This document shows positions 5,133 through 49,328 of a stretch of 49,328 bases of DNA, one piece after another; position 1 is the stretch's first letter, and each line of letters opens with the position of its first letter. Origin of the DNA: a virus (taxonomy: Duplodnaviria > Heunggongvirae > Uroviricota > Caudoviricetes); the IMG/VR virus record IMGVR_UViG_2778261065_000024, positions 1-49,328 of that record. One strand, 5' to 3'. The notes below the pieces were generated by a model. The model was not told the origin of the DNA. It saw only the letters and a program-made list of their open reading frames with translations, and searched no databases. The translations under genes and the position numbers were made by a program.

Positions 5133-5986
5133 GCACCATCCTGAAATGGGCGGGAAATAAAACCGCCATTATGTCCGAACTGAAAAAACACCTTCCTGCT
5201 GGCCCGCGACTGGTTGAACCTTTCGCGGGTTCCTGTGCTGTGATGATGGAGACGGATTACCCCAGCTATCTGGTTGCGGATATTAATCCTGATTTAATCA
5301 ACCTCTATAAAAAGGTTGCCGCTGATTGTGAATCGTTTATATCTCGCGCCAGAGTTTTATTTGAGATCGCAAACAGGGAGGTGGCTTATTACAACATAAG
5401 GCAGGAGTTTAATTACTCCACTGAAATTACTGATTTCATGAAAGCGGTATATTTCCTGTATCTCAATCGTCACGGTTACCGTGGTTTATGTCGCTATAAC
5501 AAGAGCGGGCATTTCAACATTCCCTACGGTAATTATAAAAATCCGTATTTCCCTGAAAAAGAAATTCGCGCATTTGCAGAAAAAGCCCAGCGGGCAACGT
5601 TTATCTGCGCCAGCTTTGATGAAACGCTGGCGATGTTGAAGGCGGGGGATGTGGTGTATTGCGATCCGCCGTATGACGGCACGTTTTCCGGTTATCACAC
5701 TGACGGCTTCACTGAAGATGACCAGTATCACCTGGCATCCGTTCTTGAACATCGGTCATCAGAAGGACATCCGGTCATTGTTTCTAACAGTGACACATCC
5801 CTGATCCGTTCGCTGTATCGCAATTTTACTCACCACTACATCAAGGCAAAACGCAACATCGGTGTGGCAGCTGGCGAGGGTAAATCAGCAACAGAAATCA
5901 TTGCTGTTTCCGGGCCGCGCTGCTGGGTGGGATTTGATTATTCGCGTGGCGTGGACAGTTCTGCCGTGTACGGAGTACGTGCATGA
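5129..5986 (+). CDS. dam: DNA adenine methyltransferase (Dam-like, GATC N6-adenine MTase)
   Basis: N-terminal [16 protein letters not shown] (SAM-binding motif) and catalytic DPPY (VYCDPPYDG); overlaps neighbours as in an operon. Confidence 0.85.
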
Positions 5987-8397
5987 GTCATGCCGATATG
6001 AACAACTGCTGCGGCTTTAACGAGGCTACCGCAGCATTCTCATGGAACAGCCCGAAAAAGGCCATTAACCCTTATCTGGACCCGGCGGAAGTTGCGCCGG
6101 TTTCTGCGCTTTCAAACCTGATCACTCTGTACGCTGCCGATAACGAGCAGGAACAACTGCGCCGTGAGGCACTGAGTGATCAGGTCTGGGAGCGTTATTT
6201 CTTTAATGAATCCCGTGATCCTGTCCAGCGCGAAATGGAGCAGGATAAGCTAATTAGCCGGGCAAAGCTGGCGCATGAGCAGCAGCGTTTTAATCCAGAC
6301 ATGGTCATTCTGGCGGATGTCAACGCCCAGCCTTCCCATATCAGCAAGCCGCTGATGCAACGTATTAAATACTTCAGCAACCTGGGCAGGCCAAAGGCTT
6401 ATTCCCGCTATTTGCGTGAGACGATTAAGCCATGCTTGGAACGACTGGAGCATGTACGCGACAGCCAGCTATCTGCATCTTTTCGTTTTATGGCAAGCCA
6501 TGAAGGGCTGGACGGTCTGCTGATCCTGCCTGAAATGAGTCAGGATCAGGTGAAACGCCTGTCCACCCTTGTCGCTGCGCATATGAGCATGTGTCTTGAT
6601 GCCGCTTGTGGTGATTTGTACGCCTCCGATGATGTTAAGCCGGAAGAAATCCGCAAGACATGGGAAAAGGTGGCAGCAGAAACCCTGCGACTGGATGTCA
6701 TACCGCCTGCGTTTGAGCAACTCCGCCGGAAAAGAAACCGCCGCAAACCTGTGCCCTATGAACTCATTCCGGGTTCGCTGGCGCGTATGCTGTGCGCCGA
6801 CTGGTGGTATCGGAAATTATGGAAGATGCGTTGCGAATGGCGGGAAGAGCAGTTGCGTGCTGTCTGTCTGGTCAGCAAAAAAGCATCTCCCTATGTCAGC
6901 TATGAAGCCGTGATGCATAAACGTGAGCAGCGCCGTAAGTCGCTGGAGTTTTTCCGTTCTCATGAACTGGTGAACGAAGACGGCGACACGCTGGACATGG
7001 AGGATGTGGTAAACGCCAGCAGCAGCAACCCTGCGCATCGCCGCAATGAGATGATGGCCTGTGTTAAAGGCCTGGAGCTTATCGCGGAAATACGCGGTGA
7101 CTGCGCCGTTTTCTACACCATCACCTGTCCGTCACGTTTCCATTCCACGCTAAATAACGGCAGGCCCAACCCGACCTGGACAAATGCGACGGTAAGACAA
7201 AGCAGTGATTATCTGGTTGGCATGTTTGCTGCATTTCGTAAGGCGATGCACAAAGCCGGATTGCGCTGGTATGGCGTGCGGGTGGCTGAGCCGCATCATG
7301 ACGGTACAGTTCACTGGCACCTGTTGTGTTTTATGCGCAAAAAAGATCGCCGCGCCATTACTGCTTTGTTGCGTAAGTTTGCCATTCGTGAAGACCGCGA
7401 GGAGCTGGGGAATAACACGGGACCACGCTTTAAGTCTGAGTTGATTAACCCGCGCAAAGGAACGCCGACAAGCTACATCGCGAAATATATCAGTAAGAAC
7501 ATTGACGGGCGTGGTCTGGCTGGCGAGATCAGCAAGGAAACGGGTAAATCCCTGCGTGATAACGCTGAATACGTGAATGCCTGGGCGTCTCTGCATCGTG
7601 TTCAGCAATTCCGCTTCTTTGGCATTCCGGGGCGTCAGGCTTACCGTGAACTGCGATTGCTGGCTGGTCAGGCGGCAAGGCAACAGGGTGACAAAAAAGC
7701 AGGTGCGCCGGTACTGGATAACCCGCGCCTTGATGCAATCCTGGCTGCTGCTGATGCTGGTTGTTTTGCCACCTACATCATGAAGCAGGGCGGCGTACTG
7801 GTTCCCCGTAAATATCACCTCATCAGAACCGCTTATGAAATCAACGAAGAGCCAACCGCCTATGGCGATCACGGTATTCGTATTTATGGCATCTGGTCAC
7901 CCATTGCAGAGGGCAAGATCTGCACTCATGCAGTGAAGTGGAAAATGGTTCGTAAGGCCGTTGACATTCAGGAGGCGGCAGCCGACCAGGGCGCTTGCGC
8001 CCCTTGGACTCGTGGCAATAACTGTCCCCTTGCTGAAAATTTGAACCAACAGGAGAAAGATAAATCAGCTGATGGGGGCCCCAGAACGGACTTTACCCGC
8101 ATGGATGACAAGGAGTTGCACGATTACCTGCACAGTATGAACAAAAAGGGGCGCCGGGAACTGGCTGCAAGGTTACGTCTGGTGAAACCGAAACGGCGTA
8201 GAGACTACAAACAGCGAATTACAGACCATCAACGACAGCAGCTCGTCTATGAACTGAAATCCAGAGGATTTGATGGCAGCGAGAAAGAGGTCGATTTACT
8301 CCTTCGCGGCGGCAGTATTCCGTCAGGAGCAGGCCTGCGTATCTTCTATCGGAACCAGCGTTTGCAGGAAGATGATAAGTGGCGGAACCTGTATTAA
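5983..8397 (+). CDS. A: replication initiation endonuclease gpA (rolling-circle)
   Basis: 804 aa; conserved block shared with the second copy at 41425-44247 ([36 protein letters not shown]); position after the early genes. Confidence 0.9.
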
Positions 8398-8467: not shown

Positions 8468-8510
8468 TTTACATCAGTAAGATTATTATATACTGTAAAT
8501 ATAAACAGTG
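8468..8510 (+). promoter_or_regulatory. SOS-regulated promoter: TTTACA -35, TATACT -10, overlapping LexA box TACTGTAAATATAAACAGTG (8491-8510)
   Basis: CTGT-N8-ACAG core (CTGT 8493-8496, ACAG 8505-8508), close to the LexA consensus TACTGTATATATATACAGTA, 40 bp upstream of the 8552 ORF. Confidence 0.6.
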
Positions 8511-8551: not shown

Positions 8552-8740
8552 ATGCAGGACTATTTTTTGGAGTCTTTGAAGCTCCAGCGCATTGATTTTT
8601 TTCTTAAGCTTGTAGCGGCTAGTGAGTGTAGTGATGAAGAGAAGGGGCTGGCTCTGCAGTGGGTTTCTGAATTGACTGATGAACTCATGGCAAAAATCAG
8701 AAGCCACGAATACAACCGCTCAATGGATGTCATCAGCTGA
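8552..8740 (+). CDS. small protein (62 aa), possibly a Tum-like antirepressor N-terminal module
   Basis: ATG preceded by TAGGAGGAAAG; downstream of the LexA box; followed 10 bp later by a DinI-like gene. Confidence 0.45.
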   Translation: MQDYFLESLKLQRIDFFLKLVAASECSDEEKGLALQWVSELTDELMAKIRSHEYNRSMDVIS

Positions 8741-8750
8741 GGTGACTTTT

Positions 8751-8984
8751 ATGCGCATTGAAATAATGATCGATAAAGAGCAGAAGATTAGCCAGTCTAC
8801 CCTGGACGCCCTTGAATCCGAGCTTTACCGCAATCTGCGCCCCCTGTATCCCAAAACGGTAATCCGTATCCGTAAAGGTAGCTCTAACGGTGTGGAACTG
8901 ACCGGACTGCAACTGGACGAAGAAAGAAAACAAGTGATGAAAATTATGCAGAAGGTGTGGGAAGACGACAGCTGGCTGTATTGA
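8751..8984 (+). CDS. DinI-family protein
   Basis: 77 aa MRIEIMIDK....TVIRIRKGSSNGVELTGLQLDEERKQVMKIMQKVWEDDSW, resembling the DinI family fold; GAGGTG RBS. Confidence 0.75.
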   Translation: MRIEIMIDKEQKISQSTLDALESELYRNLRPLYPKTVIRIRKGSSNGVELTGLQLDEERKQVMKIMQKVWEDDSWLY

Positions 8985-9097
8985 TTTTGTCAATAGACGC
9001 TTGTTTTTACTAATCAAAAAGGGTTACATATGAGTGAGAGGCGATGTCAATCAGATATCGCCTTGTTTTTTGTCAAGAAAAGAATAATAGGCTAAAA

Positions 9098-9775
9098 ATG
9101 AAAATTAATAATGTAGCGTTACCAATATCTCTTGCTGTAATCCTAACTGGTTGCGTGCCACATGCTTCTAACCGAAATATCACTGCTATTGAAGTGGTGA
9201 AGCCTGCTATTGGGCAAAGTGCTACCGCCTACATGGGCGATCCCATTATCACATCTGCTACTGGATTTAAAACGGACGTACTAGAACTTGGTGCGGCTAA
9301 TGGTGCATTGTCTTCTATCGCTGCTGGTACATATTGCAGTGAGGGGAATGGAATTTACCGCAATTATCATAACCCTCAAGCTGTTGCGTTAAAAAATCTC
9401 TATGGGCAAATCGGTAACTATGTTGATTATGTTAGTTACGATGCTGCAAAAAATGAGATATCACCGCCAAATGGTACTTCTTATACTGCATCAGAAATTT
9501 CTATCAAACGTGTTCCTGATGGGCTGTGTCGAGTTAGTAACTCATTGGTTAAGACTATCGAATACAATGGAAATGCAGGCGGTGTAATGAAGTTCACCTA
9601 TCGTGAATTTGCAAACGATATGGCTCGTGCAGCATTTACAACAGATTTTTCTGTAGATTCTAAGGGAAGTGACGTTATCGCTTACAAAGGTGCCAAGTTC
9701 AAAGTGAACAAGGCTGATAACTCGTCTATTTCTTATACAATTATTTCTGGCTTTGACAAGGCTGTCACGTTCTAG
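9098..9775 (+). CDS. putative lipoprotein (cargo gene; function unknown)
   Basis: N-terminus MKINNVALPISLAVILTGC with lipobox LTGC; alternative start at 9044 with GAGAGG RBS; moderately AT-rich; lies between A and the packaging genes. Confidence 0.7.
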   Translation: MKINNVALPISLAVILTGCVPHASNRNITAIEVVKPAIGQSATAYMGDPIITSATGFKTDVLELGAANGALSSIAAGTYCSEGNGIYRNYHNPQAVALKNLYGQIGNYVDYVSYDAAKNEISPPNGTSYTASEISIKRVPDGLCRVSNSLVKTIEYNGNAGGVMKFTYREFANDMARAAFTTDFSVDSKGSDVIAYKGAKFKVNKADNSSISYTIISGFDKAVTF

Positions 9776-9879
9776 GTTTCACGCTTACTGAGTATGTTAC
9801 GATTTTGCACATTCTGCATAAGCGCGCATGTCTATGCTGCATGAGATCGCATGATCGTTTGAGGATCTTTTGTGTTAAG

Positions 9880-9904
9880 GCCCGCCAGTTCTGGCGGGCT
9901 TTTG
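9880..9904 (+). terminator. rho-independent terminator candidate downstream of the lipoprotein gene
   Basis: GCCCGCCAG-tt-CTGGCGGGC hairpin followed by TTTTG. Confidence 0.5.
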
Positions 9905-9948
9905 CGTAGATCATGCAGGTGCATGAAAACCACTACATAAAGCGGGCA

Positions 9949-9967
9949 GGCGTGGCGGGGATACGAG
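9949..9967 (+). other. candidate cos (cohesive end) site of the 186-like prophage
   Basis: GGCGTGGCGGGGATACGAG resembles the P2 cos cohesive end GGCGAGGCGGGGAAAGCAC as I recall it; correct strand relative to Q; the recalled sequence is not verified. Confidence 0.3.
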
Positions 9968-10077
9968 CGCGCGCTCATGGTTGAATTAATGAAATTATGG
10001 TGTTAAATAGGCTAGCTTTTTAAGTCGTGAATATTCAATTTTTCAACTCATTTTTTTCATAGGGAGGAGTAATTGAC

Positions 10078-10776
10078 ATGGTTATGTTAGTGGATGACTG
10101 TCCACGATGTGGATCACAAAAAATAGCGTTTGATGTTAATGGGCTGAATTGCACTAGGGTTTACAATGCATTGGGCGGGGGTAAAACATACGAGTACGAG
10201 GTCTATTGTGTTTGCCGAGAGTGTCATAAAACGACAATGTTTCTTTGCAGACCTTTAACGAAAAATAAAACTTTAGATGGCTATAATTGGGAAAGTGGAA
10301 TATTCGGCTTAAAGGAAGTTGCAGAGGTTGTTAGGCCTATATCACCGGCAGACTTAGCAGTAGAGGAGCCACCAGAGTTCTTACCTGAGCATATCAATAG
10401 TGCATATGAGGAAGGGGCGAAATGTTTGGCTATAGGTTGTTATAATGCAGCAGCAACCATGTTTAGGCTTTGCCTTGATTATGCCACAAAAGGACTTCTT
10501 CCTGATGGGGAGCAAGGGCCTGCGCAAAAAATAAGGAGAAGCCTAGGGTTAAGAATGGAGTGGTTATTTGATAATCATCTACTGCCTGAAGCTTTAAGGG
10601 AACTAGCTGAATGCGTTAAAGATGACGGAAATGATGGAGCGCATGAAGGTATTTTGGATAAAGCTGCTGCTGAGGATCTTGAAGATTTTACCTATCTTTT
10701 TTTAGAACGGCTTTACACTGAACCTCAACGCCTTATCGAAGCCAAGACAAGGCGTGAACAAAGAAGAAACAAATAA
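10078..10776 (+). CDS. zinc-ribbon protein with DUF4145-like C-terminal domain (cargo gene, candidate defence)
   Basis: 232 aa; strong RBS AGGGAGGAG; N-terminal CPRCG...CVCRECH (C4 zinc ribbon); C-terminal VKDDGNDGAHEG resembles the GN..AH signature I associate with DUF4145; sits between candidate cos and the Q stop. Confidence 0.75.
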   Translation: MVMLVDDCPRCGSQKIAFDVNGLNCTRVYNALGGGKTYEYEVYCVCRECHKTTMFLCRPLTKNKTLDGYNWESGIFGLKEVAEVVRPISPADLAVEEPPEFLPEHINSAYEEGAKCLAIGCYNAAATMFRLCLDYATKGLLPDGEQGPAQKIRRSLGLRMEWLFDNHLLPEALRELAECVKDDGNDGAHEGILDKAAAEDLEDFTYLFLERLYTEPQRLIEAKTRREQRRNK

Positions 10777-10784
10777 GTTCGGAA

Positions 10785-11822
10785 TTATTCTTCTGAAAGA
10801 ATATAGGGCGTAAATTTAATCACTTCTTCGCCCAGCCAGTCGTTCAGCTCTTGTAGCCTTTTTTGCAAGGGAGTTAATTCATTACGTACAAATACGCGAC
10901 TGGCCTTCTCCACATCCCCAAACCCTCCAACATTATTAGGCATAATCCCCATCATTTGCGGCGGCACGCGGTGCGCAGCCATCATGTCGTCGCGGCTGAC
11001 ATTTTTGATATTCAAAAACTCATCCTTCGCCGCGACTTCTGACAATGGGATGATCTGAAGCCCGTCTTTTTTGCCGTTAGGCGAGTACATAAACAGGTTG
11101 CGGAAGTTGCCTGGACCTTTGGCGCTTTTCATCGCATTGCGGAGGTTGTTCACATCCTCCTGGTTTTGCGCGGCATCGGTCATGTACATGATAAAGCCCG
11201 CATGACTGCCGTTAATGTAATACTTGCGACGGAACAGCGTGGCGGACTCGTTGAGCAGGGCTGACGGAATGGCAGAAAGATAACCGGGCAGGCCGTAGAT
11301 CTCCTGATTAATATCCGGTTCCATCAGATGAAAAATGCTGCCTTTCGTGAACTGATACGGCTGGGTTGTCATACCGTATTGCACAAACCAGTAGGTATCC
11401 AGGTCTAACCCGCGTCGGGTGTATTTTGCCAGTGCAGGCTCAAGGGCGATAACTTCACCGAAGCGGTTCGTGCGTTTCTCCAGGTAGGCGTTACCAAAAA
11501 CCAGATAGTCCTGCACAAAACGCGAAAAAGCCTGCTGGCTGAGCAGCGGGTGAGGGATGTAGGTGCTGGTCAGAATGTTGCACTTTACTGCAATCGGGGA
11601 ACTATGATGCACGGCAGCGCGGAAGGTGCGCGCCAGTCCGTCAAAGCTGACGGGCGGCTCATACCAGCGGTCCATCTGTACGCATTCCACATAATCCAGC
11701 AGTTCTCGGCGGTCCAGAACAGGAACGGGATCGCCGAAGCTGAATGCTTCGGCTGTAGTTTGACTTTTAAGCTGGATCTGTTTCGTCGCCGCAGCGCGGT
11801 TCTTCTTACTCTTTCCCATCAA
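10785..11822 (-). CDS. Q: portal protein gpQ
   Basis: 345 aa; P2 Q-like length and position; paralogous to the 36740-37786 copy (HRVPPQMMG, GDVEKA). Confidence 0.9.
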   Translation of the reverse strand: MMGKSKKNRAAATKQIQLKSQTTAEAFSFGDPVPVLDRRELLDYVECVQMDRWYEPPVSFDGLARTFRAAVHHSSPIAVKCNILTSTYIPHPLLSQQAFSRFVQDYLVFGNAYLEKRTNRFGEVIALEPALAKYTRRGLDLDTYWFVQYGMTTQPYQFTKGSIFHLMEPDINQEIYGLPGYLSAIPSALLNESATLFRRKYYINGSHAGFIMYMTDAAQNQEDVNNLRNAMKSAKGPGNFRNLFMYSPNGKKDGLQIIPLSEVAAKDEFLNIKNVSRDDMMAAHRVPPQMMGIMPNNVGGFGDVEKASRVFVRNELTPLQKRLQELNDWLGEEVIKFTPYILSEE

Positions 11823-13585
11823 AAAATCTCCACAATATTGCTGGTATTGGCGGATTCGCCCTGCAGCGGTTCGTTAAACAGTGCGTGCATCGTTGCCCAG
11901 GCCAGATCGGCGTGGCTGGCTTCTTCGCTGCGGCTGGCTTCATAGGTCGGGCGGTTGCCACTGGCGGTGGTGGCGCGACGGATTGCCATAAAGGACTGCG
12001 CTATGTCGGTGTGTCCGGCGTCAAACTCCAGACGGCGGTGGCTGATAATGTCGTAGGCCTTGAGTACCAGGGCGTTTTTAACGTTGGGGTTGTAGACAAA
12101 CTCCCGGACGGCAGGAAAAAACGCTTTCACGTTCTCGTAAACCCCGTGACCAACGCCGGTTGAGTCGATACCGATATAGGTCACGTTGTACTGTTCGGTC
12201 AGTTTTTTGATGGCGTCAGCCTGGGCGCGGAAGTCCATTCCGCGCCACTGGTGACGCTCAAGAATGCGGAACTTACCGCCCGGCACGGCTGGCGGCGCCA
12301 CCACCACGCATCCGGCGCTGTCGCCGTTCTGCGTACCTTTCGCCGGGTCATATCCGATCCACACTTCGCGCCAGCCAAACGGGCGCAGGGCCAGTGCATG
12401 AAAGTCGGTCCAGACTTCCCAACTGTCCACCATGCACGCCTGCAGCTCGCTGAGCGGGAACACGGACGCGAGATCGTCCACGAACTCGCACATCAGCAGG
12501 TTCTGGTATTCGTCCGGGCTGTACTCCATGCGCAACTGGTCAAGGTCGAACAGGTTACAGCCGCCGCGCACCGCATCTTCCACGGTGACTATCTGGCGGT
12601 ACTGCCCGTCTGCGCACAGCAGGCCGGGGGCCAGATTGCTGTGGGACAGGTCGATGTCCACCTTATCGGCTTTGTTGCGCCCTCGGTTGAACAGCGCACC
12701 GGACCAGAACGGATAAGCACTGTGTGTCAGGCTGGATGGCGTGGAAAAATAGGTTTGTCGCCATTTTTTGTGAATAGCCATACCGGAAGCCACTTTGCGC
12801 AGCTCCTGGAATTTCGGTATCCAGAAATATTCATCCAGATACAGGTTGCCGTGGTAACTCTGGGCCGTGCGGGCATTGGTGCCGAGGAAGTAAAGCGTGG
12901 CCCCGTTAGGAAGCACCATCGGATCGCCTTTCAGCTCCACCTCGACTTCTTTGGCGAAGTCGATGATGTACTGCTTAAAGACGTGGGCCTGTGCCTTACT
13001 GGCGGAAAGGAAAATCTGGTTACGTCCGGTCAGCAGGGCGTCAATCAGGGCTTCACGGGCAAAGTAAAAGGTCGCGCCGATCTGGCGAGACTTCAGCAGG
13101 TTGCGGATGCGATTGGTTTTTCCGGCTTCCCACCAGTGGCGCTGGTAGTTGAACATGGAGGAATGGAAGATTTCTTCCAGCTTCTCAATCTGTTCATCGG
13201 TGAAAACATTCTTTTCCGGCTGACGGCGCGGCCCTTTGTTGCGGTTGGCGACGTTAGGGTTTAAGTCGGCTTCGTTGCCGCCATTGTTAAACTTGCCGAT
13301 CCGCGCGTGGCGCTCCGACTGGCGCGCCAGCAGGTCAATTTCTTTGAAATCTTTCCCTTCTTTGTGCTCCTTCATAATGAGCTGGCAGTAGCGGGCGGCG
13401 GTGGTGAGCTGCATCTGATCCAGCGGCCCATAGTCACCCCACTTGTCGCGTTTTTTCCAGCTGTGAACGGTTGCAACTTTCTCGCCCAGCATTTCAGCAA
13501 TGCGGGCTACGCGGTATCCCTGAAAGTACAGCAGCATGGCCTGCCGACGGGGATCGAGATCTGCGGGTGTCAGTGTGGTGTTCAT
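11819..13585 (-). CDS. P: terminase large (ATPase) subunit gpP
   Basis: 588 aa; paralogous to 34989-36740; conserved LKSRQIGATFYFA block; overlaps the Q start. Confidence 0.9.
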   Translation of the reverse strand: MNTTLTPADLDPRRQAMLLYFQGYRVARIAEMLGEKVATVHSWKKRDKWGDYGPLDQMQLTTAARYCQLIMKEHKEGKDFKEIDLLARQSERHARIGKFNNGGNEADLNPNVANRNKGPRRQPEKNVFTDEQIEKLEEIFHSSMFNYQRHWWEAGKTNRIRNLLKSRQIGATFYFAREALIDALLTGRNQIFLSASKAQAHVFKQYIIDFAKEVEVELKGDPMVLPNGATLYFLGTNARTAQSYHGNLYLDEYFWIPKFQELRKVASGMAIHKKWRQTYFSTPSSLTHSAYPFWSGALFNRGRNKADKVDIDLSHSNLAPGLLCADGQYRQIVTVEDAVRGGCNLFDLDQLRMEYSPDEYQNLLMCEFVDDLASVFPLSELQACMVDSWEVWTDFHALALRPFGWREVWIGYDPAKGTQNGDSAGCVVVAPPAVPGGKFRILERHQWRGMDFRAQADAIKKLTEQYNVTYIGIDSTGVGHGVYENVKAFFPAVREFVYNPNVKNALVLKAYDIISHRRLEFDAGHTDIAQSFMAIRRATTASGNRPTYEASRSEEASHADLAWATMHALFNEPLQGESANTSNIVEIF

Positions 13586-15639: not shown

Positions 15640-16290
15640 ATGAGCCTGAGTCCCGCACGGCAGCATCGCCTGCGCGTTCAGGCTGAACAGGCCGCCCGCG
15701 AGGGCGGCAGCGTTCGCCACGCGTCGGGCTATGACCTGATGCTGCTGCAACTGGCAGAAGACCGCCGCCGTCTCAAGGGCGTTCAGTCCACGGTCAAAAA
15801 AGCGGAAATCAAGGTGGAGCTGCTGCCGAAATACGCCGCCTGGGCGGAGGGTGTCCTGGCTGCCGGAGGCGCTCAACAGGATGACGTGCTGATGTACGTG
15901 ATGCTGTGGCGCATTGATGCCGAAGATTATGTCGGAGCGCTGGAGATCGGGCGTCATGCCCTGCGTCATGGCTGGGTGATGCCGCTGGGTAACCGCAACG
16001 TGCAGACCGTGCTGGCAGAGGAAATGGCAGACGCAGCGCAGAGCGCAATGCTTGCCACTACCGGCTTTGATGTCGATCTGCTGCTGCAGACGCTGGAGCT
16101 GACAGACGGTCTGGATATGCCGGACCAGTCACGGGCGCGTCTGCATAAAGCGATTGGCGCTGTCCTGAGTGAAAGTAATCCGGCTTCCGCCCTTAATCAT
16201 CTCAACCATGCGTTACAGCTCGATCCCCGCTGTGGCGTGAAAAAAGACAAACAGCAGCTGGAGCGCAGACTGCGCAATGACAGCCGCTGA
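15640..16290 (+). CDS. M: terminase small/endonuclease subunit gpM
   Basis: 216 aa; synteny O-N-M-L; paralogous to 32077-32877. Confidence 0.85.
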   Translation: MSLSPARQHRLRVQAEQAAREGGSVRHASGYDLMLLQLAEDRRRLKGVQSTVKKAEIKVELLPKYAAWAEGVLAAGGAQQDDVLMYVMLWRIDAEDYVGALEIGRHALRHGWVMPLGNRNVQTVLAEEMADAAQSAMLATTGFDVDLLLQTLELTDGLDMPDQSRARLHKAIGAVLSESNPASALNHLNHALQLDPRCGVKKDKQQLERRLRNDSR

Positions 16291-23642: not shown

Positions 23643-23662
23643 TTTTATTCAGGGTGATTTAT

Positions 23663-24106
23663 ATGAACGAATATGTTTATAGCGCAAGGCATAATGCTTT
23701 TTTCCCTGTGGATATGATTGATAAATATAAATCAGAGGGATGGGATTTATCAGATGCAAAGGAGGTGAATCAAAATATTATCAGTGAGTTTATGGCTGAA
23801 CCGCCACAAGGAAAAATCCGTATTGCCGGAGATGATGGGCTGCCTGCGTGGGCAGATATTCCTCTACCCACGCATGAAGAGCTTATTGAAATTACTGAAT
23901 CAGAAAGACAGCTACTAATTAACCAGGCCAACGAATACATGAACAGTAAGCAATGGCCCGGTAAAGCCGCTATTGGTCGTCTGAAAGGTGAGGAACTGGC
24001 GCAATATAATTTGTGGCTGGATTATCTGGATGCACTGGAGCTGGTTGATACCTCCAGTGCACCAGATATTGAATGGCCTACGCCTCCAGCAGTACAGGCC
24101 AGATGA
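23663..24106 (+). CDS. G: tail fibre assembly protein gpG
   Basis: Follows H; C-terminal ...SAPDIEWPTPP resembles the C-terminus of the convergent paralogue; ORF opens with GTG at 23654. Confidence 0.75.
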   Translation: MNEYVYSARHNAFFPVDMIDKYKSEGWDLSDAKEVNQNIISEFMAEPPQGKIRIAGDDGLPAWADIPLPTHEELIEITESERQLLINQANEYMNSKQWPGKAAIGRLKGEELAQYNLWLDYLDALELVDTSSAPDIEWPTPPAVQAR

Positions 24107-24680
24107 CCTCCGGCGCGGTGCTGGTATCTGTTGCCGTCACCGCGTCAATGTAATCCAGCACGGCGTTAAGTCGGGTTGTTTCTGCCTGCGTCAACTTCCG
24201 TCCGGCCTGCAATTTCAGTTGAATCAGACTGATGGAGGCCATCGCAGCATCAATCAGTGACTGGCGCTGTGCTTCTGCTGCTTCTACTGCGGCGTTATGC
24301 TGTGCCTCAGTATCTGTCACCCATTTCTCACCATCCCATTTATCGTATAGCGTTAACGGGGCGATAGTGGTTGTATTTTCAGGGTAATTACCCGGCACCG
24401 TGATTTCTTTTGCTTCTCCTGTTTCGGTGCTATAGATAATTTCACCGCGATGGTCTGGCATATATTCCCATGAGTTTAAATCTACTGAACGGCAGATTGC
24501 ATAACCAGCCTTATATGTGCCAGGAGCATCTAAACAGGAATATGCCGGGATACCGACACCAACAGCAAGATATTCATTTGAAGTGGAAATATATTCCCGT
24601 GTTTCACCATCATAGTTATAGACGGTAATATTCCCCGCCTTCGTGGCAATAAGTTCGCTATTTAATACGGCTTTATCCAT
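24078..24680 (-). CDS. G: tail fibre assembly protein gpG (second prophage segment)
   Basis: 200 aa, downstream of the second H gene; C-terminal ...STAPEVIWPVLLEA; 3' end overlaps the other G ORF by 29 bp. Confidence 0.8.
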   Translation of the reverse strand: MDKAVLNSELIATKAGNITVYNYDGETREYISTSNEYLAVGVGIPAYSCLDAPGTYKAGYAICRSVDLNSWEYMPDHRGEIIYSTETGEAKEITVPGNYPENTTTIAPLTLYDKWDGEKWVTDTEAQHNAAVEAAEAQRQSLIDAAMASISLIQLKLQAGRKLTQAETTRLNAVLDYIDAVTATDTSTAPEVIWPVLLEA

Positions 24681-38121: not shown

Positions 38122-38210
38122 AGAAAAAACGCGTTTTTTTGTGCACGCACGGATCCCTGACGGATCCAGCCGCCACGCGGGCCGGAAGGGCAAAAAGTCG
38201 TTCAAAAAAA

Positions 38211-38718: not shown

Positions 38719-39312
38719 TTAATGGAACGTTGGATCTTCAAGGCCCAGCTTTTTATGTTCACTGCGGATAAGTGCGTGAACCTGATCGGCGGTAACACCC
38801 AGATCAGCATCTGAAGTTTTCTTCGGCACATGCGTGCTTTCAATGAAGGATAAAATATCTTCAATCGTATAGCGAAGCGTCGCAGCGGAACGAGCAAAAG
38901 CGACAATCTCTTTTCTCAGTTCCGCGTTACTTTCAGGTACGCTTTTCAGCGCAACCTTTGCAGCCTCGACAAAACTTGCACATACCGCAATATGACGGAA
39001 AAGGCTTTCAAACCCTTCCTGAGTCTCTTTTTTCTGATTTTTCAGAATAATAGGGAGCTGCTTTTCTTCCCATTCGATGCGAAGGTTTGCCCTGTGTGTC
39101 TTCATCCTATCAGCCAGGTTAAGCATATAACTGGTGGCCTCATCAATAGGAAGGTATGCCACAGAATCCTTTACGTCCTGGAGGGATAGCGTAGACGTAC
39201 TGTGCCGGGAGATTGATAAGTCATGATGCACAATGCTACTGGCAGGAACAGGGGCGAGAGCCACCGCCAGCGCTGCGGCCATAGATGTTATTTTATTTTT
39301 TTTACTGCTCAT
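38719..39312 (-). CDS. hypothetical protein with signal-peptide-like N-terminus, co-oriented 10 bp upstream of the YafO-family toxin
   Basis: ATG at 39312 after AGGAAAGG; N-terminus MSSKKNKITSMAAALAVALAPVPASS; ORF opens at 39363; unlike YafN. Confidence 0.6.
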   Translation of the reverse strand: MSSKKNKITSMAAALAVALAPVPASSIVHHDLSISRHSTSTLSLQDVKDSVAYLPIDEATSYMLNLADRMKTHRANLRIEWEEKQLPIILKNQKKETQEGFESLFRHIAVCASFVEAAKVALKSVPESNAELRKEIVAFARSAATLRYTIEDILSFIESTHVPKKTSDADLGVTADQVHALIRSEHKKLGLEDPTFH

Positions 39313-39484
39313 AATTGCCTTTCCTGCCAATAATCGTGAACCACTGCCGGAATGATAGCGCAAAAAATCACCCGCTGAAACGAATTATCCTTGCGGCAAA
39401 ACTAGCCCGCGTCAACCTCATACCACGCCAGCGTCGATTGATAGTTTTGTGCCGCCTCGCGTAATGCCTGATAGTCAATCTTGC

Positions 39485-40012
39485 TCACTGGTTGCCTCCT
39501 TTGCGGAGTAGCGCCAGCTCTTCCTGCGCCTGCATCATGCGATTGACCTGAACGCGTGTGCGTCGAACGGCAAAATTAAATTGAAACATGAGCCGGAACA
39601 TTTCTGAGGCTTCCGTGTGAACATCATGGAGAGGTGACAGGCGGTACAGTTCTGCCTCCGTAGCTTGTTGAATCAATGACAGATCAAATTGAAGTGCGGG
39701 TCTGGTACATTTTGCACATCTGGCAGCAAGCTCCGGCATCAGTTTCTTAACGAAGGTGTTTTGCACCGCTTTGTTGAGTTGTGTCTGCATCCAAATCGCA
39801 AATTTCAGCGAACGCATAAATTTGATAGCCTCGGGCAGCGGCAGATAGATCATGCTAGTAGATTTGGGTGGTTGGTGAATCATCTTCACGGATACGCGAT
39901 TTCGCAGCGTTCGGAAAATCGTGTTCCCAACAACAGCTTCTACGGATACAGGACAGGGAGCCAGACCAGCCCGCAGTGCTTCTTTCATTAGCATGTATTC
40001 GTATTTTTTCAT
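39485..40012 (-). CDS. hypothetical protein (175 aa) downstream of parR
   Basis: ORF co-oriented with parMR; no recognisable motifs. Confidence 0.55.
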   Translation of the reverse strand: MKKYEYMLMKEALRAGLAPCPVSVEAVVGNTIFRTLRNRVSVKMIHQPPKSTSMIYLPLPEAIKFMRSLKFAIWMQTQLNKAVQNTFVKKLMPELAARCAKCTRPALQFDLSLIQQATEAELYRLSPLHDVHTEASEMFRLMFQFNFAVRRTRVQVNRMMQAQEELALLRKGGNQ

Positions 40013-40072
40013 TGTGTTTTCCTCGTGCGGGGCGACAGTGCGCCCCGATAAAATTAAAAGCCGTCAAATTCG

Positions 40073-40384
40073 TCATTCAGGAAATAATGCCCGGATATTC
40101 CCTGCCATCTGGCTGGTTATCTGTGCGGTTGGTGCTGTCTGTGACGCGAGGCGTTCTGTCCTGGTTTGTGTCACTGATAACGCCTCATCGTCAGCCCATG
40201 CGGCCAGTCGGTAAGCCTCTGCCGGATTCATTTTCAGAAGTGCCAGCCCGGCCAGAAAAGCCATGCGTTGGACGCTTTTGCGGGCTTCTGGTGTAAGGCT
40301 GTCCAGCCAGGCGCATGCTTCGCCTTCGTTCTTGACGGCGGCGGGCTTCAGATAGAAACTTATCCGTCTGGTTGGTGTCGTCAT
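40073..40384 (-). CDS. parR: ParR/StbB-like centromere-binding partition protein
   Basis: 103 aa; ISFYLKPAAV...LDSLTPEARKSVQRMAFLAGLAL resembles R1 ParR; immediately downstream of parM. Confidence 0.7.
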   Translation of the reverse strand: MTTPTRRISFYLKPAAVKNEGEACAWLDSLTPEARKSVQRMAFLAGLALLKMNPAEAYRLAAWADDEALSVTQTRTERLASQTAPTAQITSQMAGNIRALFPE

Positions 40385-40388
40385 TGGT

Positions 40389-41348
40389 TTACTCCTTGTT
40401 CATTGCGTACAGCCCATTAACCAGAGCAAACTGTGGCACCCCGTCCGCGATGAAAGTCGCATTAACTCCGCAGGCTTCGCGGATAGCGGGTGCCACAATC
40501 TCCGCTCCTCCACCGACAACCATCACCCGCCCGTAACCGGAAAAACCCGCCAGCACGCGGATCACACGTTGTTTCAGTGTTTCTTCCTTTTCACGAATAA
40601 CCGCCACCAGGCTGGCGTAATGCGCGTCATTGTGGATGTGCTGGCGCAGCCAGGCTTCATCATGGCGATGTTCGATAATGGTATTGGCGATGTGGTGACT
40701 GGTACGCATACCGTTAGTGGCCATCACCGACAGTACGGCATCGGCCATCAGGGAAACGCCTACGTGTGGATCGCAAAACACCTGGCTGATACCTGCCAGT
40801 TGTCCCTGAACCTTTGCCACATCCAGCGTGGTTCCGCCTAAATCCACAATCAGCAGGGATTCAAACGGACTCATGTCAGCCAGTGCTTTAAAACCAGCCG
40901 GAATGGATTCAGGCATAACCCGTACGTTACGGATAGTGAATGCTTTTCCGTTCTGGTATTCCACCGGGCGCATGACGTTTGCTTTTTTGCGGTTGATGTT
41001 GGCCATGTCCGGCTGTGCGTTTGTGTCGAAATACTCGCTCAGTGGCAGGGTGACAACCACATCCACCTCCTGTGGTGTGATGCCTGATTTGACCAGCGCG
41101 TGATGAATGGCAATGACATTCACATCGCTGTACTGGTATTGCGTGTCGGTCGTCTGGACAAAGCGATCGCTGACCGGATCAAAACCATAGCGCACGCCAT
41201 CAAGCATGTAGTTCGCGGGCTGCGTGCCACCGAACGGCGCAGACCATTCCGACTTGAAGCTGTTCGGGCTGATAGCGTTGCGGCGTTCGCCGTTCTCAGT
41301 CCATGCCAGCTTGATGTTGGTGGAGCCGTCGTCGATACAAATTTTCAT
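40389..41348 (-). CDS. parM: ParM/StbA actin-like partition ATPase
   Basis: 319 aa; MKICIDDGSTNIKLAW, SPNSFK, YSDVNVIAIHHAL, VMPESIPAGF, LIVDLGGTTLDV, VMVVGGGAEI match ParM/StbA conserved blocks. Confidence 0.9.
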   Translation of the reverse strand: MKICIDDGSTNIKLAWTENGERRNAISPNSFKSEWSAPFGGTQPANYMLDGVRYGFDPVSDRFVQTTDTQYQYSDVNVIAIHHALVKSGITPQEVDVVVTLPLSEYFDTNAQPDMANINRKKANVMRPVEYQNGKAFTIRNVRVMPESIPAGFKALADMSPFESLLIVDLGGTTLDVAKVQGQLAGISQVFCDPHVGVSLMADAVLSVMATNGMRTSHHIANTIIEHRHDEAWLRQHIHNDAHYASLVAVIREKEETLKQRVIRVLAGFSGYGRVMVVGGGAEIVAPAIREACGVNATFIADGVPQFALVNGLYAMNKE

Positions 41349-48272: not shown

Positions 48273-48338
48273 CCCTTTATTATTCTTACGTTTTACAAAC
48301 TGGAAATGTCTTTCCTCGTTTCACCGGAGGGCTTGCCA

Positions 48339-49328
48339 ATGGCAATTAAAGCGCTCGATGGTGGACGGTATAAAGTGGATGTTAGACCGCGTGGCCGAAG
48401 TGGACGTCGGATTCAGCGGATTTTTAAGAAAAAGGCAGATGCAGTGGCCTTTGAGCGTTATGTTCTCAGCCACATGCACGATAAGGAATGGCTTGAAAAG
48501 CCAACAGAGCAACGTCATCTCTCAGATCTGCTTCCGTTATGGTGGGAATTGGGTGGACGCAATAAGCCATATGCTAACGGCGTTCTAACCAGGTTGAAAA
48601 AAATCATCAAAGAAATGAATGATCCAAGGGTTAGCCAGATTAATGCTCGTTTCATGGCCGCTTATCGAAGCTCCCGTTTATCCTTGGGAGTAAAAGAGTC
48701 TACTGTTCGGCGTGATGAGTCGGATCTCGGAGGAATGTTTACACTCCTGGCAAATGCCGGGGAATTTCACGGAGAAAATCCGCTCCGCGCCCTCCCCTCT
48801 TTGAAACGAAAATCACCCGAAATGACGTATCTCACCACGGAAGAAATCGCCAAATTACTGGATGCAGTAAGCGGTGATGCCCGGCGGATTACGCTACTTT
48901 GTCTCAGTACTGGGGCGAGATGGGGAGAAGCGAAAAATCTGCGCGCGGAACACATCATCAATAATCGCGTGACGTTTAACAAAACTAAAAACGGAAAAGT
49001 TCGAATTATTCCTGTCTCTGATGAAGTTGTTAGTGAGATCAAAACAAAGAAATCCGGCCTTTTGTTTGACGTCAATTATGAGGAATATCGCAAGGTGCTT
49101 CGCAGTGTTAAGCCAGACCTACCAAAAGGACAGGCTGTACATGTTCTACGCCATACCTTTGCTGCTCACTTTATGATTAATGGAGGAAATATACTTACGC
49201 TCCAGCGAATTATGGGGCACGCCACGATCCAGCAAACTATGACCTATGCGCACCTCGCTCCTGATTTCCTCCAGGATGCAATTTCACTTAATCCGTTAAA
49301 AGGAGGCATCCACATTTCATCCACATAA
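48339..49328 (+). CDS. int: tyrosine integrase, P2 family (second segment)
   Basis: MAIKALDGGRYKVDVRPRGRSGRRIQRIF N-terminus like P2 Int; C-terminal HVLRHTFAAHFMINGGNILTLQRIMGH; ORF opens at 48306; TAA at the window end. Confidence 0.9.
   Translation: MAIKALDGGRYKVDVRPRGRSGRRIQRIFKKKADAVAFERYVLSHMHDKEWLEKPTEQRHLSDLLPLWWELGGRNKPYANGVLTRLKKIIKEMNDPRVSQINARFMAAYRSSRLSLGVKESTVRRDESDLGGMFTLLANAGEFHGENPLRALPSLKRKSPEMTYLTTEEIAKLLDAVSGDARRITLLCLSTGARWGEAKNLRAEHIINNRVTFNKTKNGKVRIIPVSDEVVSEIKTKKSGLLFDVNYEEYRKVLRSVKPDLPKGQAVHVLRHTFAAHFMINGGNILTLQRIMGHATIQQTMTYAHLAPDFLQDAISLNPLKGGIHISST

Follow-up and report, generated by a model that had tools for sequence, protein, structure and literature searches.

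In a 49,328-nt stretch of tailed-phage DNA (IMG/VR record IMGVR_UViG_2778261065_000024, referred to here as the window), the 19-mer at positions 9949–9967 is very probably, judging from its alignment with annotated phage ends, the cohesive-end (cos) site of a Fels-2/Cartapus-like member of the P2 family (Peduoviridae) that carries a cargo locus on the Q side. The interval which separates this site from the portal gene Q is an accessory hotspot enriched in known and candidate anti-phage systems. The window gene in this interval is more aptly called one cassette of a standing exchange locus than a cargo insertion, a large gap between cos and Q being the rule in this lineage.

Identity of the cohesive-end site

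The 19-mer GGCGTGGCGGGGATACGAG was read directly from the sequence as an exact match on the + strand, and a search of both strands allowing up to three mismatches found it only once in the window, compared with 0.02 occurrences expected from shuffled sequences. Its 12-nt core, GGCGWGGCGGGG, has no second exact copy in the window, and the sole match with one mismatch lies inside a second gpA gene. For comparison, the annotated cohesive ends of P2 (GGCGAGGCGGGGAAAGCAC; NC_001895, 1–19) and 186 (GGCGTGGCGGGGAAAGCAT; NC_001317, 1–19) were fetched, and the circular junctions of P2, 186 and P4 were rebuilt. The window 19-mer is identical to the ends of 186 and PSP3 at 15 of 19 positions and to those of P2 and P4 at 14 of 19. 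Positions 1–12 are the same as in the 186 end, and the five differences from the P2 end all fall at position 5 or in the 3′ half.

The similarity extends beyond the 19-mer. A 55-bp cos core (−29 to +26) common to P2, 186 and P4 is attributed to Ziermann & Calendar 1990 in passages of two later papers (PMC5694545, PMC9594776), and over this core the window shares 42/55 bases with P2, 44/55 with 186 and 43/55 with P4. The alignment is gap-free to these three phages as well as to Fels-2 and SEN8, flanks included, with a conserved left flank of the form TGCATnAAAACC...AAAGnGGGCn and a right flank, nGCGCGC, directly after the 19-mer. Further, the identical 19-mer with the same flanks was present in 106 of 140 related cos segments, always downstream of Q. 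The SEN8 record begins at this 19-mer, annotated there as ‘putative cos site’, and positions 1–59 of the Cartapus record (equal to window 9917–9975) are annotated ‘putative cos site, homologous to the cos of P2 phage’; both features are labelled putative, and the agreement with these records is one of sequence.

As in P2, the 19-mer lies on the top strand and Q lies downstream on the bottom strand. The P, Q and M genes stand in P2 order, with O and N after P and then M on the + strand (Table 1). The initial annotation of this DNA, made from the letters alone, had proposed that the 19-mer resembles a P2-family cohesive end, that it is correctly oriented with respect to Q, and that a whole gene separates it from the Q stop codon; all three points hold, and the gap-free alignment with the P2 and 186 cos regions bears out the first of them. 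Terminase would be expected to cleave at this site, with predicted 19-nt 5′ overhangs.

Table 1. Features of the cos region and of the genes around it in the window
Feature	Coordinates	Strand	Basis
Replication gene A	5983–8397	+	gpA side of cos
DinI/Tum-like gene	8679–8984	+	Pfam DinI; order as in 186 (tum, orf97, t95b, cos)
Orf97-like gene	9044–9775	+	phrog_1353; 186 annotation
Upstream TGCAT-type repeats, gpA side; candidate terminase-binding (cosB-like) region	9815–9853	+	position-fixed motifs; further TGCAT at 9920–9924
GC-rich hairpin with TTTT; positional equivalent of 186 terminator t95b	9880–9903	+	read from sequence
55-bp cos core (−29 to +26): TGCATGAAAACC...AAAGCGGGCA, 19-mer, CGCGCGC	9920–9974	+	gap-free alignment; column conservation
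19-nt cohesive-end sequence (putative cos cleavage region), Fels-2/Cartapus-like prophage	9949–9967	+	exact, unique, homologous to 186/P2 ends
Left junction and AT-rich leader of the cargo cassette	9968–10077	+	homology to other phages ends at ~9974–9979
Cargo gene, 232 aa, Cys4 zinc ribbon and DUF4145 (HEPN-like); candidate anti-phage abortive-infection RNase	10078–10776	+	Pfam; PADLOC
Portal gene Q; last ~30 codons (10785–10877) in the variable zone	10785–11822	−	Pfam Phage_portal
Large terminase gene P, enzyme expected to cut cos	11819–13585	−	Pfam Terminase_6N, Terminase_6C, Terminase_5 (gpP-like)
Small terminase gene M, presumed cos-recognition subunit	15640–16290	+	Pfam Phage_term_smal, 1.6e-39

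Arrangement of the putative packaging signals

The gpA side of cos carries short motifs at fixed distances. Five sequences, those of P2, 186, P4, SEN8 and the window, share a TGCAT at −111 and another at −29 from cos; P2, 186 and P4 have additional copies at −124 (−123 in P2) and −101, and the −124 copy is present in SEN8. In the window the −101 position reads CGCAT, and a TGCAT lies at −134. No TGCAT is found within 160 nt to the right of cos, and the density of the motif over the whole window is 0.46 per 200 nt. Between the motifs, the sequences of P2 and P4 are otherwise unrelated. The repeats may represent a cosB-like region bound by terminase, perhaps an array for binding of the small subunit.

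The GC-rich hairpin that follows the repeats occupies the place of t95b, which in 186 is annotated between orf97 and cos and closes the tum-orf97 operon, and a similar hairpin is kept in Fels-2 and SEN8. It was not called by a simple terminator scan because its T run consists of only four T. A perfect LexA box (CTGTAAATATAAACAG, 8493–8508) lies ahead of the DinI/Tum-like gene, where it overlaps a promoter-like TTTACA...TATATA, as is the case at p95 of 186.

On the other side of cos, the terminator scan called no intrinsic terminator between the Q stop codon and the cos flank, and the sole terminator-like site downstream of Q in the window is a − strand hairpin with a T run at 9945–9930, within the cos core. 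This hairpin and its TTTT read CCGCTTTATGTAGTGG TTTTCATGCA; the P2 counterpart, CCGCCCGCTTCACGGGGCGG TTTTAATG, is much stronger.

Conserved sequence near cos thus extends for at least 120 bp on the gpA side, where it includes the TGCAT repeats and the t95b-like hairpin, and for only 7 bp (CGCGCGC) on the Q side. Since all conservation lies either on the gpA side or within these 7 bp, the gpM/gpP terminase would need nothing to the right of cos+7, and DNA past this point could be replaced without harm to packaging while the genome length still fits the capsid. Such replaceability would allow the interval from cos+7 to the 3′ end of Q to serve as a standing site of cassette exchange.

The interval between cos and the portal gene

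In the window, 817 nt lie between the last base of the 19-mer and the Q stop codon; the corresponding distances in P2 and 186 are 167 and 176 nt. This gap is filled by an open reading frame on the + strand, the stop codon of which lies 8 nt from that of Q at 10785; this single cargo gene runs from cos toward Q, convergently with Q. To place the gap among those of related phages, we assembled 160 loci that encode relatives of the window Q protein, with 80 loci each from IMG/VR and the GTDB species representatives, sought the cos core downstream of Q in each and kept those in which it matched only once (136 loci). Gap lengths in this set took 105 distinct values between 148 and 5352 nt, with a median of 1654 nt, and only 11 were shorter than 300 nt. 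It is because the other 125 of 136 exceed 300 nt, and because the 3′ end of Q varies with the cassette, that we regard the window gene as one cassette at an exchange locus.

The 231 reading frames in these intervals (230 from relatives plus the window cargo) fell into 125 protein clusters, the largest being the DUF4145 cluster to which the window cargo belongs, with eight members. Among the reading frames of the relatives, 217 of 230 run from cos toward Q, a bias also seen for those of at least 150 aa (174/180). The same direction is found for ctx in phiCTX and gop in P4. PADLOC matches were obtained for 13 of 20 cluster representatives and included a retron II-A reverse transcriptase with NDT, bSEFIR, AbiU/AIPR, PD-T4-9, PDC-M03A/B, Hp1/Hp2 and NsnA; further representatives carried a KAP NTPase, a DUF4062 domain or a PIN domain.

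The variable unit begins at cos+7 and reaches into Q, taking in its last ~30 codons, since conservation stops at +26/+27 on one side and at the C-terminus of Q on the other. Over 136 unique cos-centred segments, column conservation was 0.8–1.0 from about −120 to +26 and about 0.35 from +27 onward. In agreement with this boundary, BLAST matches to a phage collection ended at window 9975–9978, and the cos module was present in 1278 of 5426 complete E. coli genomes with matches that always ended at 9973–9979, the cargo being common to only 43 of these 1278 genomes. The leader that begins at this junction has a GC content of 0.38–0.40 vs. 0.50–0.60 in Q and P. At the other boundary, the column conservation of Q among 94 relatives was 0.94–1.00 over residues 31–315 and dropped over the final two blocks of 15 residues, to 0.79 and then 0.56; Q was 94–100% conserved in 75 of the 136 surveyed loci. 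The C-termini of Q differ among the window, Fels-2, RE-2010 and SEN8, i.e., among phages with different cassettes.

The cargo gene

The cargo protein matches Pfam DUF4145 (PF13643) at 4.5e-7 and PADLOC PD-T7-4 (PDLC04109) at 1.2e-6 and 26 bits, residues 36–200 being aligned to positions 39–165 of the profile. All 34 members of the family that were compared match PD-T7-4 alone in PADLOC, with low scores (best 9.2e-10). As judged from the sequence pattern, CPRCG...CxCxxC, the protein begins with a Cys4 motif, and C8, C11, C46 and C49 are invariant in the 34 homologues. In the alignment of these homologues, the N-terminal part is variable and the C-terminal part is highly conserved, including an invariant K181-DDGNDGA-H189 motif (residues 181–189; window 10618–10644). 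Homologues of about 230 aa, all unnamed, are widespread in Gammaproteobacteria and beyond.

PD-T7-4, renamed RAZR, was characterised by Zhang et al. 2026 (PMC13017515) as an RNase with a zinc finger and a DUF4145/HEPN domain; it forms a 24-mer that surrounds portal or Erf-like rings of phages, and it cuts RNA. Its specificity is set by the zinc finger, the domain that varies most, and catalysis in RAZR-Ec depends on R146 and H154 (PMC13017515). The cargo shares with RAZR an N-terminal Cys4 zinc ribbon, a C-terminal DUF4145/HEPN domain and the location of the greatest variability in the zinc ribbon. The two differ in that the cargo is distant (26 bits) and has K-x7-H in place of R146-x7-H154, a correspondence between K181-x7-H189 and the RAZR residues that is drawn from the offset of PADLOC coordinates only; the HEPN arginine thus seems to be replaced by lysine throughout the cargo family. 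Neither a PDB sequence search nor a search with the 34-sequence profile returned a RAZR or HEPN chain, and a single-sequence AlphaFold2 model of the cargo had a pLDDT of 39 and was not used for a fold search. The cargo is plausibly a distant relative of the RAZR (PD-T7-4) defence RNase, and it is probably an abortive-infection defence gene that serves the lysogen against other phages. The location reported for PD-T7-4 homologues is an overlap with integrase genes and not a place next to cos (PMC9519451).

The DNA of the cargo is 100% identical to CARTA_1 of Cartapus, prophage 4 of strain LF82, and published RNA-seq of LF82, which is not the strain of the window, records transcription of CARTA_1 while gpA, Q and P are silent. 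In overnight LB culture, CARTA_1 stood at ~25.6 (log2 4.7) vs. 7.7 for the portal gene, in the units of that paper's supplement, and in macrophages its log2 value was 9.2–9.6 vs. 2.5–3.0 for the portal gene. CARTA_1 rose in macrophages together with the SOS-type tum operon (CARTA_44–47) and was also expressed when the tum operon was low. These data on the identical gene place the cargo among genes expressed from a repressed prophage, in the manner of a moron. They are what the expression claim rests on, since a consensus scan called no + strand sigma-70 site between cos and the cargo start codon. If the cargo were indeed related to an RNase activated by portal rings, its position 8 bp from the phage's own portal gene would invite speculation as to how self-activation is avoided in the lytic cycle.

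State of the prophage in the window

Within window 1534–49328, two P2-family left halves lie head to head between integrase genes at 1534–2547 (−) and 48306–49328 (+). The first half is Cartapus/Fels-2-like and reads int ... A, cos, Q, P, O, N ... H; the second is an inverted P88-like (Xuanwuvirus) half that reads H ... N, O, P, Q, ParM, gpA, int. They meet near 24.1 kb (junction ~23654–24680), where tail-fibre and tail-fibre-assembly genes converge, and genes for the tail sheath, tube, tape measure, D and ogr are absent between the two integrases. A 1.8-kb segment at the junction has a 100% identical counterpart in P88-like prophages of strains GB089 and MFDS1022581, namely their invertible tail-fibre segment, which a recombinase gene follows in both. 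What the arrangement suggests is an inversion between two prophages, with the invertible segment as its site. If the inversion is real, the cos site would be intact in sequence and the element unable to excise as a unit in this arrangement.

The P88-like half has a weak candidate for a diverged cos of its own, CGCGTGGCGGCTGGATCCG, at 38179–38161 (−), which matches the first cos at 11 of 19 positions. It is preceded by TGCACAA repeats and lies ~375 nt from the second Q stop codon (37786), with no cargo reading frame between them. The P88_4B11 record begins at window 38192, and no annotation of the candidate (38161–38179) is found in P88-like records. On the gpA side of this region, 38719–41348 (−), are a ParM-like actin ATPase gene (40389–41348) and small reading frames of no assigned function. 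The GB089 and MFDS1022581 prophages carry there ParM and a partition protein, together with either a YafO-type toxin or a ClpX-type zinc-finger protein, and this difference in content indicates that the gpA-side locus of the P88-like phage is also variable.

Discussion

Our reading of 9949–9967 as the cos site has to be weighed against two others. The five mismatches to the 19-nt P2 end could be taken to mean that the 19-mer is merely a chance G-rich resemblance and no cos at all. However, the expected number of such matches is 0.02, the other 36 bases of the 55-bp core and the position-conserved TGCAT motifs also align to P2, 186 and P4, and the same 19-mer with its flanks recurs downstream of Q throughout the related loci noted above; the flank alignment refutes chance resemblance, to which we give essentially no probability. 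Hardly more credible is the view that the true packaging site lies elsewhere, next to the Q stop codon, and that 9949–9967 is a displaced relic. While it is the case that cos stands 167–178 nt from the Q stop codon in P2, 186 and PSP3, the cargo and Q stop codons of the window have only 8 nt between them, and no second cos-like core occurs in the Cartapus-like prophage. Moreover, the core and its left flank are strongly conserved over the 136 segments, unlike a relic, and the same displaced layout occurs in viable phages, phiCTX and SEN8.

A different question is whether the site, although intact by sequence, is idle here, the prophage having been split by inversion with a second P2-family prophage and left with neither self-excision nor tails. 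The two head-to-head left halves, the absence of the sheath, tube, tape-measure, D and ogr genes between the integrases, and a junction that coincides with the invertible tail-fibre segment, 100% identical in GB089 and MFDS1022581 beside a recombinase gene, all speak for this scenario, whose chance of being correct we would put somewhat short of even. On the other hand, the arrangement could be reversible, through an invertase, or an assembly artefact, and the reciprocal junction would lie outside the window. An idle cos is compatible with the identity of the site and does not contradict it.

The closest known relative of this region is Cartapus (OV696611; Elveevirus), from which the window differs by six mismatches over 9917–13080 (3164 nt). 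The Cartapus record gives a putative cos, then the gene of a DUF4145 protein, then the portal gene, which is the order of the window. Cartapus is a complete 33.4-kb prophage, unlike the window copy, which is joined at its tail-fibre genes to the inverted P88-like half-prophage, and Cartapus DNA has been found at low titre in DNase-protected virion preparations of LF82. In Fels-2 (STM2723.1) and RE-2010/ELPhiS, the cos core and left flank are 98–100% identical to the window, and a cargo gene of the same orientation, annotated ‘abortive infection protein’, starts directly after cos+7; it differs from the window cargo in encoding an AbiU/AIPR-type protein of 554–565 aa, with a gap of ~1.86–1.89 kb. 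SEN8, a plaque-forming Felsduovirus, has two genes over 2.2 kb between cos and Q. In the Pseudomonas phage phiCTX (Citexvirus), cosL (1–21), ctx (362–1222, +) and Q (1417–2469, −) show the convergent layout of the window, and ctx has its own promoter and terminators; the phage belongs to a distant genus, its cohesive end is 21 nt long, and its cargo is a pore-forming toxin responsible for lysogenic conversion, unlike that of the window. The displaced layout is tolerated by phiCTX and SEN8, both viable phages. They uphold the suggestion of the initial annotation that the packaging region has tolerated cargo between cos and Q; its picture of a single insertion gives way to that of one cassette at an exchange locus.

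The interval itself has a long history. According to passages in PMC5694545 and PMC6868368, Dodd & Egan 1996 (Virology 219:115) described 186-related prophages in which the retrons Ec67 and Ec86 lie in foreign DNA that replaces the stretch from cos to the portal-gene terminator, i.e., the same interval. Retron II-A cassettes are likewise present in the cos–Q interval of the relatives surveyed here; in contrast, the window cargo is a single zinc-ribbon/HEPN gene with no retron, and no intrinsic terminator was called downstream of its Q. In the phiRSY1 paper (PMC5694545), with reference to Dodd & Egan 1996 and Nakayama 1999, the site between cosL and Q is presented as a suggested hotspot of P2-like genomes. 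More recently, a gpA-gpQ hotspot ‘adjacent to the cos site’ was defined from 18,150 E. coli loci (Rousset 2022, PMC9122126), and four new systems were found in it, as hotspot #1, by Vassallo 2022 (PMC9519451). A 2026 survey confirmed this hotspot and reported essentially no recent exchange of defence genes between P2 and P4 (PMC13586616), and on this ground we dropped the idea of P2/P4 cassette exchange. Like the cargo described in these studies, that of the window lies between gpA and gpQ, adjoining cos. What the initial annotation called an extra accessory hotspot is a hotspot, as seen from the 105 gap lengths and 125 protein clusters; it is not an extra one, for it falls within the published cosL–Q and gpA-gpQ hotspot.

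The original observation was confirmed and its interpretation supported, and the finding is an ordinary one, because the cargo sits in a hotspot described since the 1990s. Nor is it new, since the P2 literature from the 1990s onward and the annotated Cartapus record already give the site, the position of the cargo and this gene order. The only increments offered here are the base-level definition of the Q-side locus, the orientation bias of the cargo, the one-sided distribution of conserved packaging signals and the tentative assignment of the cargo as RAZR-like. Rousset and Vassallo treat gpA-gpQ as one locus; P2 old and tin lie on the gpA side of cos, and the window cargo lies on the Q side. 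It is possible, though on balance we consider it doubtful, that the published hotspot is really two loci split by cos, of which the Q-side one would be the main variable locus in Fels-2/Elveevirus-like phages, with the cos core and the 3′ end of Q serving as homology arms for swapping and all packaging signals, the position-fixed TGCAT repeats at −124, −111, −101 and −29 among them, placed on the gpA side. The bounds of the Q-side locus in such a scheme are cos+7 on one side and the last ~25–30 codons of Q on the other. We did not find this two-locus resolution spelled out in the literature examined.

For annotation of Fels-2-like prophages, these results mean that a search for cos should extend to ~5 kb from the portal gene instead of covering only the nearest 200 bp, and that defence genes can reliably be looked for between cos+7 and the portal stop codon. 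The cargo of the window is itself a plausible relative of the recently characterised RAZR, with an identical copy in the well-studied strain LF82.
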